Below are positions 1 to 19,763 of a stretch of DNA of 64,000 nucleotides, one piece after another. The translations under genes and the position numbers were made by a program. Location: IMG/VR virus record IMGVR_UViG_3300028549_001457, positions 1 through 64,000 of that record; one strand, written 5' to 3'. The notes under the pieces were generated by a model, which did no database searches, was not told the origin of the DNA, and saw nothing but the letters and a program-made list of their open reading frames with translations. The stretch is from a virus. Lineage: Duplodnaviria; Caudoviricetes. Every line of letters begins with the position of its first letter. Within the stretch, counting starts at the first letter, position 1.

Positions 1-93
1 CTTTACTTCCTTAGGCTTTACTTCCTTAGGCTTTACTTCCTTAGGCTTTACTTCCTTAGGCTTTACTTCCTTAGGCTTTACTTCCTTAGGCTT
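1..93. repeat. Perfect 15-bp tandem repeat (ctttacttccttagg) x6+, encoding PKEVK on the - strand
   Basis: Directly visible; continues off the left edge. Confidence 0.95.
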
Positions 94-432
94 TGGTGTT
101 TGGGCTGGGATTGGGATAAGGTCAATATCATCAAAATCAGTCTGGTTCTGTGCTGCTTTTAGGTTCGCCCGTCCGATGAGAAGGTTAATGTTGCTACAGG
201 AGGCTTCCCAGGATTGGTATGCGTCACTATATGCAGAGTATACATCAAAGGATGAGTCAAACCTGGACCCACACTCAAACACGGGCTTCAACTCCAAACA
301 TTGATAAAGCTTGGCCTGCAACTCAGGGAGGGTAAGTTCCTTCATATCGGCAACCGAAAACCCTATAAAGGGGGCTACCACATGAACCCGGTTAGCTCGT
401 TTTGCAACAAAACTTGATTGACTATTACTCAT
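1..432 (-). CDS. Hypothetical protein, 3'-truncated by the window edge, ending in PKEVK repeats (not in ORF track)
   Basis: Manual translation: ATG at 432, GAGG-type RBS upstream, open to position 1 (MSNSQSSFVAKRANRVHVV...PAQTPKPKEVKPKEVK...). Confidence 0.75.
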   Translation of the reverse strand, partial: MSNSQSSFVAKRANRVHVVAPFIGFSVADMKELTLPELQAKLYQCLELKPVFECGSRFDSSFDVYSAYSDAYQSWEASCSNINLLIGRANLKAAQNQTDFDDIDLIPIPAQTPKPKEVKPKEVKPKEVKPKEVKPKEVKPKEVK

Positions 433-12488: not shown

Positions 12489-12502
12489 ACATACGTGGAT
12501 CA

Positions 12503-12543
12503 ATAATAATAAAAGCACCCATAGGGGGTGCTTTTATTATTAT
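12503..12543. terminator. Bidirectional-type intrinsic terminator
   Basis: ATAATAATAAAAGCACCC / GGGTGCTTTTATTATTAT 18-bp stem. Confidence 0.85.
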
Positions 12544-12666
12544 ACGCAAAATTTTTCTATTTGTATGAATCTAGATGGGTACCAGTTCTCTGCATTTTCC
12601 TTTTGTGAAGTGGGGCTACATTACACCAGTAGACCATGACGCCTAAAACTAGCTAAAGGACTCAAA

Positions 12667-14793
12667 ATGAGTGTTCCACACCGTAGTAGAACCGAACTAG
12701 CACAAGTCCTCGCAGAAAAAAATGAACGGGTTCGTCTTCTAGAAGCTGATTGTAAACGCCTTCAGAAAGAGGCGCTTGACGCAAGAGTAATTCGAAGAGA
12801 AATATTCAAGTTGGCGGATGCCAAACCAGAACTCCCTGGTTGGATGTTGGACTCCAGCAAGGCTCCTTCAAAGGGGCCTGGAATCCCCGTGGCAGTAGCT
12901 AGCGACTGGCATTGGGGTGAAAGGATCTCTCCAGAACAGATTGGTGGCGTCAACAAATATAATATTGAAATCGCACATGCGAGAGCAAAGGCTTTCTTCA
13001 GCGGAATAATTACTCTGCTGAAGAACTATATGGTGAAACCCGAGTATGAAGGCATTGTTCTCTGCTTGGGAGGGGATATGCTTTCAGGAAATATTCATGA
13101 AGAATTAGCCCAAACTAATGAGCTTCAAACCATGCCTGCTATGTTGGACCTCTATGGCGTTTTGGTTGAAGGCATTGACAGTCTTCTAAAAGAATTCGGA
13201 AGTGTTGTTATACCTTGTGTTACGGGTAACCATGGAAGAAATACCCTGAAGATGCAAGCTAAAGAACGTTGCTATACGTCATTTGACTGGCTTCTATATC
13301 AAATGCTTGAAAAGCATTATGAGAAGAATAAAAAAGTTCGGTTCTTAATCTCAGGTGGCGTGGACCAACTATTTAAGGTATACAACCACCGCTTCTTGCT
13401 AACTCACGGAGACAGCTTGGGCAAAGGCGGCGATGGAATCATCGGATGCCTAGGCCCTGTTATTCGAGGTGACAGCAAGACCAGATCACGAAACGGCCAA
13501 ATTGGCCAGGAATACGACACAATGCTCATTGGACATTATCATCAGTTGATGTTCCTTTCTAAGGTTATTATTAATGGATGTTTCCCGGCGGGAAGTCTTG
13601 TAACATGTGGACACTCGCATAAGCCTATTGAAGAAGTCAATGTGGGAGACACTGTGTTATCCCATGATGGCACGTGGAACACAGTTACTAATAAACTTCA
13701 AAAAATGTCAGATGAAGGGCTAATACACCTGAAAATCAGAGGTCTTGCTAAGCCTCTAACATGCACCCCAAATCACATGCTTTGGGCCATTAAAGGCCAG
13801 ACCAAGAAGTGTGCGGCTATAGGGGTTAAATGGGATGCTTTGCAGGGAGATGGGGACAAACCTCAATGGATCCCGGCAGATTACATCTCTCCCGAAGATT
13901 TTGTATCCATACCAGTGTTCAACGGAGGTGGTGCGACTCCCATAACACCTGACTTGGCGTGGGCATATGGGCTATATATAGCGGAGGGACATGCGCTTGT
14001 CAGAGGGGGGGCCAAAGGCCTGCACAATCGCGTGGCTTTAACAATGCACGACAGAGAACTTCCGGTGTTGGAGAAATTTGCGAAGATTATGGCAGAAAAC
14101 CACCCTGAATTGGTAGATTATCGCGTGTATACTCGAACCAGATCCAATGGCGGATTAACATCCGAGTATGTGTGCTCGGGTAAAAATATCGCGGCTTGGT
14201 TCAGAGATCAATTTGGGCACCTTGCCATAGGGAAGCAGCTACCAGAATGGATGCTGGATATGACGCCAGAACTTAAACGATGTGTTGTTCAAGGTTGGAT
14301 TGACGGTGATGGGCACACTTCAAAACGTGATTCCGCTATAAGTGTTACGACAATCTCCCCCGTATTAGCTCATCAAATGTTTGATATGGCTATGTCTTGT
14401 GGATTAAACCCGTCCCTAATGACGTTAGCTAAGGGTGGCCCCCGAAAAAATGACTCATACAGTATATGGTTTAGGCAGGGTCAAGAATCAATCGTTGTAG
14501 ATGGTGTGGTTTTCAACCGGGTCAACGCTCGCTACAGAGATACTCAAGTGGTCCCAGTGTATGATCTTGAGGTGTCGGGACCCCACACATACACTGTAAA
14601 CCACTGTGGAGTCCACAACTCTCTTTGCGGTTATAACGAATTTGCCTCAAACATGTTGAGAGCGCCCTTCGAGGTACCCAGACAGGCGCTGTTCTGTGTG
14701 CATCCTGAGCACGGAATAACCTACCAAATGCCCATATTGGTTGAGCCCCACAAGGTAGATAAGGTTCAGAAGTGGGTTTCCTGGACAGAATAA
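12667..14793 (+). CDS. Calcineurin-like metallophosphoesterase interrupted by an intein
   Basis: SDWHWGE, LGGDMLSG, GNHGR, THGD, GHYH motifs; extein junction IING|SLCGYNEF. Confidence 0.88.
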   Translation: MSVPHRSRTELAQVLAEKNERVRLLEADCKRLQKEALDARVIRREIFKLADAKPELPGWMLDSSKAPSKGPGIPVAVASDWHWGERISPEQIGGVNKYNIEIAHARAKAFFSGIITLLKNYMVKPEYEGIVLCLGGDMLSGNIHEELAQTNELQTMPAMLDLYGVLVEGIDSLLKEFGSVVIPCVTGNHGRNTLKMQAKERCYTSFDWLLYQMLEKHYEKNKKVRFLISGGVDQLFKVYNHRFLLTHGDSLGKGGDGIIGCLGPVIRGDSKTRSRNGQIGQEYDTMLIGHYHQLMFLSKVIINGCFPAGSLVTCGHSHKPIEEVNVGDTVLSHDGTWNTVTNKLQKMSDEGLIHLKIRGLAKPLTCTPNHMLWAIKGQTKKCAAIGVKWDALQGDGDKPQWIPADYISPEDFVSIPVFNGGGATPITPDLAWAYGLYIAEGHALVRGGAKGLHNRVALTMHDRELPVLEKFAKIMAENHPELVDYRVYTRTRSNGGLTSEYVCSGKNIAAWFRDQFGHLAIGKQLPEWMLDMTPELKRCVVQGWIDGDGHTSKRDSAISVTTISPVLAHQMFDMAMSCGLNPSLMTLAKGGPRKNDSYSIWFRQGQESIVVDGVVFNRVNARYRDTQVVPVYDLEVSGPHTYTVNHCGVHNSLCGYNEFASNMLRAPFEVPRQALFCVHPEHGITYQMPILVEPHKVDKVQKWVSWTE
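13579..14619 (+). mobile_element. Intein (347 aa) with LAGLIDADG homing endonuclease domain
   Basis: Starts CFPAGSLV...IEEVNVGDTVLSHDG; AYGLYIAEG and VQGWIDGDG motifs; ends VYDLEV...TYTVNHCGVHN followed by Ser. Confidence 0.93.
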
Positions 14794-14894: not shown

Positions 14895-15530
14895 ATGACA
14901 ATTATCGCTGCTTACCGGGGGCCTGATGGTGTTTATATGGCCGGTGATTCTATGGCCGCAGATGCGAATGACACTATCTATGTATGTGACCCCAAAGTGT
15001 TTGCGTTTAGTGGGTTCACCATTGGGTATGCTGGGAGTTTCCGTTTAGGGCAGATCTTAAACCATTGTTTTAACCCCCCACCACACAACCCCATCCTAGA
15101 TGACTCTACATATATGTTCTCCGTTTGGCTTGAGAATCTTCGGGAAACGTTAGATTCTTATGGGCTGCTTAAAACTGAGAACGGTGTGGATGGCGTGGGT
15201 GAAGATGGATCTGCCCTAGTAGCTTATAGAGATAATTTGTATCATATTCAAGAAGATTTATCTATTCTAAAGGTATCCCAACCTTTTTCCGCAATAGGGG
15301 TTGGAATGAGCTACGCTATTGGAGCGATGCATGCACTCCATGGCACCCCAGGGATGTCAAGCGAGGATATTTTGTCGAAAGCTATGAGTGCCGCTGTAAA
15401 CCACTGCCCACGTTGTGGAGGCACCATAACCATGATTAAACACGAACCCTCCGCAGAGGTGCGCTGGAGAAGGCCTAGGTCGGCCAACAAGAAGAAACCT
15501 AAAATAGTTGAATCAGCGAAGAAAATCTAA
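14895..15530 (+). CDS. Ntn-hydrolase (HslV/proteasome-beta-like) peptidase
   Basis: Thr2 nucleophile (MTIIAA), AGDS, PKVF, GYAGSFR, SAIGVG motifs. Confidence 0.75.
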   Translation: MTIIAAYRGPDGVYMAGDSMAADANDTIYVCDPKVFAFSGFTIGYAGSFRLGQILNHCFNPPPHNPILDDSTYMFSVWLENLRETLDSYGLLKTENGVDGVGEDGSALVAYRDNLYHIQEDLSILKVSQPFSAIGVGMSYAIGAMHALHGTPGMSSEDILSKAMSAAVNHCPRCGGTITMIKHEPSAEVRWRRPRSANKKKPKIVESAKKI

Positions 15531-15577: not shown

Positions 15578-15817
15578 ATGAACCCCAAACCTAAATATTC
15601 TGTGGAAGTACGTCAGCGTGGGGCGCACCAAGATGATATCTTGCTGCAAACAGATGCTTTTCGGGATGCGTTGGCAGAATACGAGCGATTAACCACAAAA
15701 TTGGCAGAAACCCTTAACACATGCTCGTATGATATTGTAGCATTCTATGTAAGAGACACAGGAAATTATATTCCTGTGGTAATGTCATCTGTTGAAACAA
15801 AACTCATGGAGTATTAA
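15578..15817 (+). CDS. Hypothetical protein
   Basis: 79-aa ORF with GGAGG RBS. Confidence 0.65.
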   Translation: MNPKPKYSVEVRQRGAHQDDILLQTDAFRDALAEYERLTTKLAETLNTCSYDIVAFYVRDTGNYIPVVMSSVETKLMEY

Positions 15818-15850: not shown

Positions 15851-16429
15851 GTGGAAACACTTAAGGTAAAAATCAAGGCGCTTCCAGATACGGCAATGCT
15901 TCACCACAACATTCGTCTAGCAAACCCCATGGATGAAGGCTCCCTTAAAATGAAGAGCCTCACATCTGTTAGAAAAAAAACTGAGGAAGTTTATATGGGG
16001 ATTGCAGATGTAGAGTTTGAATATGGGATGTATTATGATGCCCGTATTGGGCCATATATCCCAGGTATTTGGCTAGATGCAACGCTGATTGAAGGCGGTA
16101 AGCTCCAGAAAAACGGGAGTAAGATCAAACGTAGCACACTTGTTGTGGACACCATCATCCCTCTGGAGTATGATGGTCCAAGAGATATGGAGGCTTTAAA
16201 GGCGGATATGCGGTTTCGAGATATCCGTGCTGTGACCATTGGGACCTCTAAGAATATGCGATGCCGACCCAGGTTTACAGACTGGAAAGCCCAATTTACA
16301 ATTCAGTATAATCCGGACCTTATTAATAAGGATGAGTTAGTTGTTGCCCTAAAGACAGCGGGTGCTTGTATTGGTCTGGGTGATTATCGCCCCCGTTTTG
16401 GTCGATTTGAAGTTGAATCTGTGAGGTAA
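15851..16429 (+). CDS. RAMP/Cas7-like RRM-fold protein, not in a cas operon
   Basis: GPYIPG; RCRPRFTDWKAQFTIQY; C-terminal G-rich loop AGACIGLGDYRPRFGRFEV; AGGAG RBS, GTG start. Confidence 0.7.
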   Translation: METLKVKIKALPDTAMLHHNIRLANPMDEGSLKMKSLTSVRKKTEEVYMGIADVEFEYGMYYDARIGPYIPGIWLDATLIEGGKLQKNGSKIKRSTLVVDTIIPLEYDGPRDMEALKADMRFRDIRAVTIGTSKNMRCRPRFTDWKAQFTIQYNPDLINKDELVVALKTAGACIGLGDYRPRFGRFEVESVR

Positions 16430-16431
16430 TT

Positions 16432-16884
16432 ATGGCGAGTCCAGCGTTAATTTGGAGAGCCGCGCTACTTGAGTTCTTAGATGAGAACCATGTCCCTGGG
16501 GACATTATTGAACACAAGTGGTTCTTGGACCATTTTAAGATGGAAGTCCCTGAGACTATGTCGAAGCATGAATGGGGTAAGTGGAGCCTAAAATTTCTAA
16601 GCTACTTTATGCCATTTAGAGAGCACCTACTTAAAGACCACTTCATTGACTTACAATCTATTGGGGGGGATAACTTTCAAATTATTCCCCCAGAGGAACA
16701 AACCAGAAGTGCAGTGCTAGAATTAGGTGGCAACTATAAAAGAATTCATAGAAGGTGCTCAAATAGGCTACGGTATGTTAATAAAGATAAACTTACTCAG
16801 CAACAGCTCCAGGAGAATGCGGATGCATTAGCAAAGGTAGCTCAACTCAAAGCTATGGCGCAACCTATCTGGAAAGTTGAGTAA
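16432..16884 (+). CDS. Partner of the RAMP-like gene; possible winged-helix N-terminus and helical C-terminus
   Basis: 2-bp gap after the RAMP-like gene; LQSIGGDNFQIIPPEEQ resembles a wHTH wing. Confidence 0.6.
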   Translation: MASPALIWRAALLEFLDENHVPGDIIEHKWFLDHFKMEVPETMSKHEWGKWSLKFLSYFMPFREHLLKDHFIDLQSIGGDNFQIIPPEEQTRSAVLELGGNYKRIHRRCSNRLRYVNKDKLTQQQLQENADALAKVAQLKAMAQPIWKVE

Positions 16885-16919: not shown

Positions 16920-16955
16920 AAGAAGAAGACTCCACACAAGGGGTCTTCTTCTTTT
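16920..16955. terminator. Intrinsic terminator closing the RAMP-like operon
   Basis: AAGAAGAAGACTCC / GGGGTCTTCTTCTT stem plus T-tract. Confidence 0.8.
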
Positions 16956-16957
16956 AT

Positions 16958-18139
16958 ATGAGGTTTCGAATGATCCATTCCGCTAGAATTCTGTGCGCGG
17001 CTAGATATGTCCACATAGCTAATAAACTGAGTCATGTAATTGCTGCTGCGTGTAAACAAGCCTCGGGAGGGAGTGCAAACGCTCTCATGAATAAGTTGGC
17101 GGGGGAGAAATGGAAGATAAATGGGAGGTTGCAATATGCCCCTATAGTTCCTGGGGTAACCCCTTGGGATGTTGAGGGCGATACTACTAAGCGATACGAC
17201 TATGATGAGTATATGGACGGGGCGATCCATTCTGAAGCAATTAAATATAGAATTTCAGATCCGGAACAAATATACGAGATAACCCAGGAGTTCCTTACAC
17301 AGTTTATACCCAAGCTACGTGAGTATATCCAAAAAAGGCTTGATGAACACGATATAACAACTCCAGAAGGGCTTAGATCTTTTCAAGAAAAATTAAGGAA
17401 TAATTTTAGTACATCTGCTAGCAACTATGTAATTTCGTTAATGAGGGACCAAAAGAACAGGTTGGAAAGGGAGTCTGATAGCGGGGACTTCGCTACAAGC
17501 GGAGGTCCTTCGGTATTTGAGAGAACCCCAGGAAACCATGAGGATGCTGACACACGGTATTTGCGCGATGCCGCTCAAAACGCACGTTTCTTGAAGGATC
17601 TGAAAGAGTATGCAGATGGTGTGTCTGTAAAGACATCAAAAGCCATTCGAACCCTGGTAAACCTCATGCGTGATGGGTACCTTAAGGGAGACGTTAGCCC
17701 AGATTTGCGAGATCAAATCCAGGGGGCCATTAAGCGAGTTATCCCTGGATTTTTAAAAAGAAACCCGGTTTATGAAGACAATCTAGTCTCGTTTTTAAAA
17801 CAGTATGCACGGGATGTCAAGAAAACAAACCAGGAAGACCCATTTAAGGGAAATGTGTCGTTAAGCCTAAGGAATCAAGAGCAGAAAAACGCCTGGGAGT
17901 TCTTAAAGCGTTTAGAGGAAGGTCCCCTAGAGGGCCGTACATGGCGAAAATCGTATGGAGACTACTCACTAGATGTTCTGGTAGAAACCCTAAATAAATG
18001 GGGATACACAGTAGATGTTGCGTGGCTTCCTAACCTATCCGAGGAAGAGATTTCAGACATACGTAATAATTCTGGGACAGCGTTCAGATCTAAAATATAC
18101 ACACTTGTAAAAAAACCTTTAAGGTCGCAAATAGCTTAA
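16958..18139 (+). CDS. Hypothetical, paralog of 18168-19763; possible divergent sigma70-like region
   Basis: Shared C-terminal blocks with the downstream gene; N-terminal IHSARIL motif. Confidence 0.55.
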   Translation: MRFRMIHSARILCAARYVHIANKLSHVIAAACKQASGGSANALMNKLAGEKWKINGRLQYAPIVPGVTPWDVEGDTTKRYDYDEYMDGAIHSEAIKYRISDPEQIYEITQEFLTQFIPKLREYIQKRLDEHDITTPEGLRSFQEKLRNNFSTSASNYVISLMRDQKNRLERESDSGDFATSGGPSVFERTPGNHEDADTRYLRDAAQNARFLKDLKEYADGVSVKTSKAIRTLVNLMRDGYLKGDVSPDLRDQIQGAIKRVIPGFLKRNPVYEDNLVSFLKQYARDVKKTNQEDPFKGNVSLSLRNQEQKNAWEFLKRLEEGPLEGRTWRKSYGDYSLDVLVETLNKWGYTVDVAWLPNLSEEEISDIRNNSGTAFRSKIYTLVKKPLRSQIA

Positions 18140-18167: not shown

Positions 18168-19763
18168 ATGATACATGTATCGAGACTCTTAATAGCAAGA
18201 AATATAATTGCTACAATTAAACGAATTATTGTAGCTGCTGCGGGGGAAGCTGAGGTAGATCGGGTTAGCCTTGAGACTATGGGCTCAGCCATTAGGGACC
18301 TCATAAAATTATGGAGTGAAACCCCCATTGAGTTCAATGGCGAGATGACATACCCACCAATTAATATTGATGGGATGCCAAACCCCGAGGCATGGTTATA
18401 TTATAAAGCTAAACCGCGTGTGGTGAACTCAAATGTTCCCCTATCCGAGTTAGCTACAGCTATTATTGACAGCATGACTGCTCTGGATAATCCAGCTACC
18501 AAAACCATGCAGAGGGGTGTTACTAAAGCTAGATCAATCAAGGACTGGATGCATATCTGGATGCAGGTTGTTTACAATGGATCGGCTCCGGGGTCCGCAT
18601 ATACAGGCCCGGCATACGGAACCTTAAAGAGCCCCGAGGCTATTGCGGCATTTAACCAGCTATTTTGGGGAGGTTTGCAGGTAAGAGTCCAAAAAATGGC
18701 GTCTGATATGGTGAAATCTAGAGGAAATGGGTCTACAGTATCTCTCTCGGGAGAGTCTGCACCTCAACTAGCGGATACTACGTCTGATTTCAGAATTGAT
18801 GATAAGTTCCTCCCTGATTTAGCCGCATATGTGTCAAACTTGGAGCCTAGTCTAGCGAACCCTCTAAAACTCATGATGAGATTTATGAACGGATCCCTAA
18901 ATGAGGAAGTTTCGGAGACACAAAAAGAGGAGATTCGTCAGGCGGTGCTAGCGGTAATCCCAGAATTTAGGGAGGAATACCCAGAGTATGACGCAGACTT
19001 CATCTCCTATTTTAGAAAATTCTCTAAAGAGATCAATGAATACGTCCCTCAGAAAGCATATAAGCAAGAAAAGCAATTCAGCCCAAAACAAGCTTTCCTG
19101 GATGCAATGGAATCTGGAATGATTATTAGAGGGAATGTCCAGAAGGGCTCAGGGTATACACCCCCAACACCCCCAGCTAAGCATGGCACCTGCTTTAAAA
19201 ATCCAGGTAGTGTAGACGGACAAGCATGGAGACAGGCGGGGTTCACAGAGTCTTTGGATAGGCTGACTGCAAATTTACGTAAAGAGGGTTATGATATCTC
19301 TGTGCAGACCAAGCCAGGGGCTGAGAGCCTCCCTGGATGGGCGGAAGCTAAGGCGCGGGGGTCTGTCTGGAGATACAGGATCTATACTCTAATCAGCGCA
19401 CCCCAAAAAGAGCGTATAGCTTCATACAGAACTTCATCAACCAAGATGGACGCTAAGACGGTGAAACGTATTAAGGCCCTCTTATGGTCTGTGGGACAAT
19501 CCCCTGTAGCAGATATTCCTTTAGAAAGTATTCAGAAAATTTTAAAAGAAGGTGGGTATACACTTACTCAGGAGGATGGAACCCCATGGGAAGGGTTTAT
19601 ATTCGCACCAACAGAAAGCCAGCAAAGAGAACTTTTTGAGATTGGCAAGCTTCCCAAGACAGATAATCCCTTGGAAGTCTGTGAGCCAATAGACACAAAG
19701 CTCCTGCTTACATGGTATAAATTTCAGACGGGGAAATACGAGGTAGTTGGCTACTTAAATTAG
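18168..19763 (+). CDS. Hypothetical, paralog of 16958-18139 with an extra C-terminal domain
   Basis: N-terminal IHVSRLLIA; VIPEF..YPEY...F.SY; SLDRLTANLRKEGY; YRIYTL; tail IPLESI...QEDGTPWEG...WYKFQTGKYEVVGYL. Confidence 0.55.
   Translation: MIHVSRLLIARNIIATIKRIIVAAAGEAEVDRVSLETMGSAIRDLIKLWSETPIEFNGEMTYPPINIDGMPNPEAWLYYKAKPRVVNSNVPLSELATAIIDSMTALDNPATKTMQRGVTKARSIKDWMHIWMQVVYNGSAPGSAYTGPAYGTLKSPEAIAAFNQLFWGGLQVRVQKMASDMVKSRGNGSTVSLSGESAPQLADTTSDFRIDDKFLPDLAAYVSNLEPSLANPLKLMMRFMNGSLNEEVSETQKEEIRQAVLAVIPEFREEYPEYDADFISYFRKFSKEINEYVPQKAYKQEKQFSPKQAFLDAMESGMIIRGNVQKGSGYTPPTPPAKHGTCFKNPGSVDGQAWRQAGFTESLDRLTANLRKEGYDISVQTKPGAESLPGWAEAKARGSVWRYRIYTLISAPQKERIASYRTSSTKMDAKTVKRIKALLWSVGQSPVADIPLESIQKILKEGGYTLTQEDGTPWEGFIFAPTESQQRELFEIGKLPKTDNPLEVCEPIDTKLLLTWYKFQTGKYEVVGYLN

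Follow-up and report, generated by a model that had tools for sequence, protein, structure and literature searches.

A probable type II VIPR protein pair without adjacent guide RNAs in a jumbo phage from microbial mats

Systems of the Viral Interference Programmable Repeat (VIPR) type were introduced in 2026 by three preprints, covering their discovery (10.64898/2026.04.26.720920), their structure as seen by cryo-electron microscopy (10.64898/2026.04.26.720927) and their part in competition with satellites (10.64898/2026.10.15.759431). These phage systems are related to CRISPR and silence DNA under the guidance of RNA. A VIPR locus comprises vipr, which encodes a minimal RAMP protein, usually one vap gene, and the guide RNAs termed vrRNAs (10.64898/2026.04.26.720920). 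Each vrRNA consists of 9-16 YNNGG pentamers and a structured 3' tail, one Vipr protomer is bound per pentamer, and the complex binds double-stranded DNA whose sequence agrees with the NN dinucleotides when one base in each unit is passed over, silencing transcription of rival phages, satellites or prophages (VIPR preprints). In E. coli, solo vrRNAs encoded in trans by satellites redirect the Vipr of a phage (bioRxiv 10.64898/2026.10.15.759431). Here we describe a two-gene locus in a 64,000-nt stretch of DNA, hereafter the window, which represents bases 1-64000 of the 278,785-bp virus record IMGVR_UViG_3300028549_001457 (estimated 95% complete). At least two studies of microbial mats have yielded metagenomes that contain this genome. 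We conclude that the locus is very probably the protein-coding half (vipr and vap1) of a type II VIPR system in an uncultivated 279-kb jumbo phage of microbial mats.

The type II system of phage phiSUSP1 (hereafter SUSP1) consists of Vipr, Vap1 and four vrRNAs. Like the pair in the window it is phage-encoded, carries a G-loop of the form GDxRPRFGRF, maintains conserved contacts to GG and to the backbone, and has a 2-bp spacing in front of vap1. The SUSP1 locus is laid out as a 450-nt intergenic region, vipr (195 aa), the 2-bp gap, vap1 (146 aa) and a 530-nt intergenic region. These ~450-530-nt regions hold one and three vrRNAs, whereas the pair in the window is flanked by 33 nt and ~85 nt of non-coding DNA with none. 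The two phages are also dissimilar, SUSP1 being a 90-kb Felix O1-like phage. The best database identity, 40-64%, was to type II VIPR loci of the prophage type (the clade of Pseudomonas phage LESphi2 and P. fulva, with 80 IMG/VR relatives, L049-L128), in which vipr and vap1 stand in the same order. These loci differ from ours in having 1-8 co-oriented GGY-NN arrays within 3 kb, and they lie on contigs of at most 80 kb, most of which look temperate and siphovirus-like. A sister locus on a metagenome contig from the European Nucleotide Archive (L129) shares the gene block of the window and differs by a short vrRNA of its own and by an exonuclease without an intein.

Two further comparisons place the locus. 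In the VIPR-null phages that carry solo vrRNAs (bioRxiv 10.64898/2026.10.15.759431), protein and guide are likewise uncoupled on the phage genome, yet the other way round: there the guides remain and vipr-vap1 has been lost, while the phage studied here keeps vipr-vap1 without adjacent guides. The Cas7 RAMPs of type III CRISPR-Cas (Csm3, Cmr4) resemble Vipr in their RRM core, thumb and glycine-rich loop, but show no detectable sequence similarity to it, and Vipr comes without partner Cas proteins or a CRISPR array. The guide code also differs, being a pentamer in VIPR and a hexamer in type III CRISPR-Cas. The initial annotation of the window, made from its letters alone, had pointed to reports of solo phage RAMPs with short-repeat non-CRISPR guides. 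These are the VIPR systems (bioRxiv 10.64898/2026.04.26.720920), and the protein in the window is a sequence homologue of SUSP1 Vipr. A system of this kind is not new, the type II vipr-vap1 pair being already in print.

The vipr and vap1 genes and their products

The vipr gene starts with GTG, compared with ATG in its relatives, and a Shine-Dalgarno sequence read directly from the DNA (AGGAG) lies 7 nt 5' of this codon. The RAMP hallmarks noted at the outset (PYIPG, RPRF..W and a terminal glycine-rich loop) proved to be family-wide features. PYIPG, RCRPRF..W and the C-terminal AGACIGLGDYRPRFGRFEV are all present in the window protein and conserved in an alignment of 33 sequences, in which P71, G72, R137, R139, P140, F142, W145, G171, G175, R180, P181 and G184 show no or almost no variation, and the same is true of G171, G175, G177 and D178 of the G-loop. 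By PHROGs profile search the protein belongs to phrog_4652 (E 5.9e-50), a family annotated as 'unknown function' that also includes SUSP1 Vipr. A sequence search of the PDB gave one clear match, to 36pp_D, 'SUSP1 Vipr protein' (E 3.6e-32, residues 8-190), and identity to phiSUSP1 Vipr (ALH47069) is 35%. Profile searches of Pfam, NCBIfam and PADLOC returned no match for either Vipr or Vap.

We modelled Vipr with AlphaFold2 from 33 homologues and obtained a mean predicted local distance difference test (pLDDT) of 94.2. Foldseek, run against a PDB copy older than the Vipr entries, returned 44 matches at E <= 1e-3 (best E 5.8e-6, TM-score ~0.5), and the matches listed (50 rows) were all Cas7-family subunits or effector complexes (Csm3, Cmr4, type III-D, type VII). 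The proposed RAMP/Cas7-like fold was thereby borne out, and model, structural matches and G-loop together display the RAMP architecture of a single RRM core, thumb and glycine-rich loop. Such likeness to Csm3 and Cmr4 is also what an orphan Cas7 subunit would show, left behind as a relic of a phage-borne class 1 CRISPR-Cas system. We regard that origin as extremely unlikely. The clear sequence homology of the protein is to Vipr and not to any Cas7, the Cas models of PADLOC and NCBIfam gave no match, and profile searches of the whole genome with Cas1 (PF01867) and the Pfam RAMP family (PF03787) found neither. Similarly, no Rfam family, CRISPR repeats included, and no CRISPR-like tandem repeat was found in the window, in agreement with the earlier statement that it has no CRISPR locus.

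The positions with which SUSP1 Vipr grips the GG of its guide and the target backbone are retained. In the SUSP1 structure, H17, K33, R138, D177, W178 and R179 contact G1, G2 and Y3 of the repeat as well as the target backbone (bioRxiv 10.64898/2026.04.26.720927). Five of these are conserved in the window protein, as H19 (H17), K35 (K33), R139 (R138), D178 (D177) and R180 (R179), and at the sixth the position is conserved, with Y179 in place of W178. All six positions are invariant or near-invariant in the 33 relatives.

The second gene, a vap1-like accessory gene, starts 2 bp past the vipr stop codon. Its tight coupling to vipr had been noted from the sequence, and both the open reading frame (ORF) coordinates and comparison with other phages agree with it: in 84 related loci, 79 ORFs placed directly 3' of vipr are vap homologues. 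Vap belongs to phrog_5926 ('unknown function'), which also takes in SUSP1 Vap1 and the LESphi2 neighbour, with 26% identity to the former (BLASTP E 1e-7) and 28% to the latter (E 3e-18). Its model (pLDDT 93) has an N-terminal half of H-b-H-H-b-b topology and a long helical hairpin at the C-terminus. Of the earlier label, a possible winged helix-turn-helix or helical partner, the winged helix-turn-helix part is weakly supported: Foldseek found no significant match in the PDB, and the weak ones (E >= 0.2) were enriched for winged-helix proteins of the MarR, GntR and PurR type. VIA-align matched only the generic C-terminal helical hairpin. The predicted fold fits the 'predicted DNA-binding' type II Vap of the VIPR papers without proving that role. 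The unit is closed by a terminator, which had also been annotated and is real: a 14-bp stem that contains GC pairs (~16921-16953) is followed by UUUUAU and has a fold z-score of -3.7.

Vipr homologues are abundant, with 421 clusters at E <= 1e-3 and 455 IMG/VR stretches. The pair described here lies in a virus record. At the DNA level (blastn) the locus matched none of 50,697 phage records. By Vipr identity the close lineages are L008 (89%) and L007/L129 (86%), and the order exonuclease, HslV-like peptidase, vipr, vap is common to the three. Between L129 and the window, identities are 69% for the exonuclease, 62% for the peptidase, 86% for Vipr and 57% for Vap. Among three lineages the proportion of non-synonymous differences (pN) is 0.08-0.10 in vipr and 0.14-0.30 in vap, whereas the synonymous proportion (pS) is saturated at 0.74-0.89 (0.74-0.81 for vipr); both genes are therefore maintained by purifying selection. 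Overall, the vipr-vap1 module is intact and under selection in a jumbo phage that has no guides in cis.

Guide arrays in relatives and in the window

We called an array where at least 6 of 8 pentamer units carried GGY in phase. By this threshold, arrays lie within 3 kb of vipr in 74 of the 80 IMG/VR relatives, always on the vipr strand. Five of the six array-less relatives are on contigs shorter than 6 kb and the sixth gene pair is near the end of a longer contig. Degenerate arrays (4-5 of 8 units) stand beside the genes in four of these six exceptions. In the whole window, by contrast with the relatives, the maximum on either strand was 3 of 8 in-phase GGY units, which equals background, and other guide scans (a YNNGG regular expression, any three conserved columns, period-5 Fourier power) found nothing near vipr. 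That no guide array adjoins the gene, as the initial annotation had it, is therefore confirmed and forms the one atypical feature of the locus. There is no room for a vrRNA in the ~85 nt of non-coding DNA 3' of vap, as coding resumes by ~16970, judging by the homology of the N-terminus of the ORF at 16958..18139 to its paralogue at 18168.

Some of these results weigh against assigning the pair to type II VIPR. The defining RNA component is absent in cis, with no array of the GGY-NN, NNNGG, YNNNG or NNNNG type in the window, as opposed to a same-strand array within 3 kb in 74 of 80 relatives. In addition, the residues of the Y3 pocket are not conserved, E71 and M72 of SUSP1 being I73 and W74 here, so that the exact repeat consensus could differ.

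The sister locus suggests where a guide may once have stood. L129 has a vrRNA at the head of its gene block, 2.1 kb upstream of vipr (L129:2243-2320), with 6 of 8 GGY units (~7-8 units; GGCTA GGTGT GGTAG GGCCG TGTTC GGTAT GGTGG GGGTG). Its tail, a 15-bp hairpin (fold z -6.4), resembles the GGGTG-hairpin tail of SUSP1. No GGY-NN array was found in the syntenic gap of the window (Table 1), and the cis guide seems, accordingly, to have disappeared or been relocated in the lineage of this phage. The gap in L129 (L129:2113-2483) also holds a 3-unit GGY remnant (GGCGT GGTTG GGTAA) upstream of the vrRNA that runs into an intrinsic terminator and could be a decayed second guide.

One reading of the empty gap is that the module was recently disarmed or repurposed, the guide having been deleted from 12489-12666 and vipr and vap now decaying or acting independently of a guide. 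Besides the absence of the array that L129 has, it can draw on the reverse loss, in which vipr-vap is deleted and guides are kept, a common event in SUSP1-like phages (bioRxiv 10.64898/2026.10.15.759431). However, neither ORF is disrupted and the key contact residues are all retained, pN/pS is ~0.1 across lineages, and the lineage with 89% identity (L008) has the same compact layout. We consider recent disarming quite improbable.

Instead, Vipr in this phage presumably still works with a GGY-NN guide and silences matching competitor DNA. By analogy with SUSP1, its protomers would polymerise on a GGY-NN vrRNA, one per pentamer, and the filament would bury each GGY and present the NN dinucleotides. 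It would then bind double-stranded DNA matching NN-x-NN-x, with one base skipped per unit, and the bound filament would block transcription, the usual victim being a competing phage, satellite or prophage. Silencing would be enhanced by Vap1, which is small and probably binds DNA. If Vipr works with a GGY-NN guide and none is present in cis, the guide must come in trans. We tentatively propose, at roughly one chance in three, that purifying selection keeps the pair without a cis guide and that the guide arrives in trans, either via a single solo vrRNA that would have moved into the tRNA island of the phage and be transcribed antisense to it, or via another mobile element.

The guide might also come from outside altogether, from a co-resident prophage, a satellite or a co-infecting phage, or Vipr might soak up the guides of rivals. 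Purifying selection on vipr despite the lack of cis guides speaks for such a source, as does the published finding that Vipr accepts any GGY-NN RNA and that satellite solo vrRNAs redirect phage Vipr (bioRxiv 10.64898/2026.10.15.759431). But the sister L129 encodes a vrRNA of its own, which makes self-supply ancestral in the clade, and we hold an external source to be unlikely.

A remote candidate guide and the rest of the phage genome

A supply in trans from the phage's own genome is possible, and the whole-genome scan for short-period guide arrays that the initial annotation had recommended yielded a single vrRNA-like tract, unproven and 164 kb from vipr. Two tracts stood out in this search, both non-coding and both on the minus strand. 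The first, tract (a), lies in a 105-nt spacer between tRNA-Ile(gat) and tRNA-Ala(ggc) and has the units GGCGT GGTGC GGTAA TGCAA GGCGT GGCGT GGTAA GGTAG GGAAT, followed on the same strand by a 10-bp hairpin and a weak T-tract. It could be a solo vrRNA that loads onto Vipr, though we would put this at only about one chance in three. Several features argue for it. Nowhere else in 2 x 279 kb do 4 or more YNNGG units follow one another, and tract (a) satisfies the published definition (>= 4 YNNGG units), whereas whole-genome shuffles produced no such run in 4 of 5 cases and a single run in the fifth. Seven of its nine units carry GGY in phase, against at most 4 in a shuffle, and in an 8-unit window its 7 of 8 was the top score by a margin. 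The tract is non-coding and, as in vrRNAs of relatives such as L051, a strong hairpin and weak T-tract follow directly. In length, and in having a single degenerate TGY unit, it is similar to the L129 vrRNA. Finally, solo vrRNAs borne by phages are documented (bioRxiv 10.64898/2026.10.15.759431).

Other observations count against tract (a). A distance of 164 kb separates it from vipr, and it reads on the opposite strand, antisense to a cluster of plus-strand tRNAs, whereas the arrays of the relatives (n = 74) are all adjacent and co-oriented. No promoter was recognised. A motif defined post hoc, TTTGTAT-N(0-6)-CTAGAT, has only two instances genome-wide, one upstream of the vipr block (window 12561-12581, plus strand) and one 5' of tract (a) (genome 180,695-180,680, minus strand), but the coincidence is not significant, since an unbiased search with the 36 nt upstream of tract (a) ranks the window site ~9th with E 2. 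We treat the shared motif as a lead and not as evidence. The NN diversity of the tract is low (GT three times, AA three times), no RNA run was listed as containing the sequence, and DNA contigs from two further microbial-mat runs were identical over it, so that they offered no comparison of NN with GGY variation. Moreover, other pentamer-periodic, C-rich leaders in this phage are clear 5' untranslated regions. Such periodicity can thus arise without VIPR, which lowers our confidence in the tract.

No target of tract (a) under the 1-nt-skip rule exceeded chance, whether sought in the phage genome, among 86 VIPR loci or across IMG/VR. In the phage genome, scores reached no more than 13 of 16, a value that the shuffled-guide null matched, and those in the 86 VIPR loci were within the null. 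The exact target pattern occurred in IMG/VR in 36 heterogeneous stretches, mostly lysine-rich low-complexity coding sequence, with no family enrichment. The L129 guide, scored against the genome of the window phage, was likewise at the null. Searches for further copies of the tract were also negative: its exact hairpin tail had 0 matches in IMG/VR, as did the tRNA-Ile ... tRNA-Ala anchor, the tRNA-Ile 3' end had 0 matches in JGI metagenomes, and the scaffold-plus-tail pattern had 10 unrelated coding matches in metagenomes, 0 of them with vipr. Taken together, a functional vrRNA at tract (a) is conceivable and falls short of being probable.

The second tract, tract (b) (genome 134,959-135,029, minus strand), was rejected as a vrRNA on account of NN dinucleotides that are almost all TG and of a register shift. 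Read on the plus strand, the same DNA is one of several C/A-rich leaders and runs up to the Shine-Dalgarno sequence that serves the gene at 135,030. Leaders of the (CCCAA)n and (CCCAG)n type are found at genome 134,953-135,021 (L012:1454-1522) and 160,485-160,505, where they abut plus-strand Shine-Dalgarno sequences, and many other intergenic leaders of the phage are C-rich and G-poor. The C/A-rich pentamer leaders may be translational or transcriptional leader elements. A 15-nt repeat at window 1-94 was likewise rejected as a guide, being unlike GGY and located at the contig end (a 9-nt repeat occupies the other end). The record begins and ends in perfect short tandem repeats: its start has 6.3 copies of CTTTACTTCCTTAGG, and its end (278,690-278,785) has ~10 of GATTGTTCT. 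These could be assembly-end artefacts or true terminal repeats.

The tRNA island of the phage (genome 172,262-202,818) contains 44 tRNA genes and a transfer-messenger RNA gene (tag AEDTMLLQAA), all on the plus strand. Several of its spacers have strong hairpins that look like terminators when read on the minus strand. Around vipr, the gene block (Table 1) begins with an exonuclease whose intein, at about residues 300-650, has Hint and LAGLIDADG domains. The L129 homologue (362 aa) is free of it, and the alignment splits into residues 1-311 and 272-362. Past the terminator follow two tandem paralogues on the plus strand (16958-18139 and 18168-19763) that match no family and share the N-terminal motif MIH(S/V)(A/S)R(I/L)L (MIHSARIL and MIHVSRLL) as well as C-terminal blocks. 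The same pair lies 3' of vap in the 89% relative L008.

Table 1. Features of the vipr-vap1 gene block and the remote candidate tract, in coordinates of the virus record (identical to those of the window up to 64,000)
Feature	Position	Strand	Description
Gap syntenic to the L129 vrRNA gap	12489..12666	+	Terminator and promoter-like TTTGTAT..CTAGAT motif
Exonuclease with intein	12667-14793	+	phrog_284, metallophosphoesterase type
HslV-like peptidase	14895-15530	+	Family assignment
79-aa ORF	15578-15817	+	Upstream of vipr, same gene block
vipr	15851..16429	+	Probable 192-aa minimal RAMP (Cas7-like) protein of type II VIPR system; GTG start
vap1-like accessory gene	16432..16884	+	150 aa; N-terminal winged-helix-like half and C-terminal helical hairpin
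Intrinsic terminator closing the vipr-vap unit	16921..16959	+	14-bp GC-containing stem, then UUUUAU
Candidate vrRNA, tract (a)	180,632-180,691	-	In 105-nt spacer, tRNA-Ile(gat) to tRNA-Ala(ggc)

Consequences for the VIPR family

VIPR systems are a very recent finding and their natural diversity is still being mapped. The locus described here adds a tRNA-rich jumbo phage of microbial mats to the carriers of type II VIPR, and it indicates that vipr and vap1 can be maintained where no guides adjoin them. Were the guide neither remote nor borrowed, the locus would be another annotated example of a known family. If, on the other hand, the pair is kept by selection and guided in trans, a 'split' or guide-scavenging VIPR would be on record for the first time, as the mirror of the published VIPR-null phages that carry guides only. 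Searches within ~20 kb of vipr, as made in the discovery paper, would miss guides that are remote or borrowed, and the 'guns for hire' picture, in which rival elements exchange guides and effectors, would acquire the reciprocal case that it lacks.

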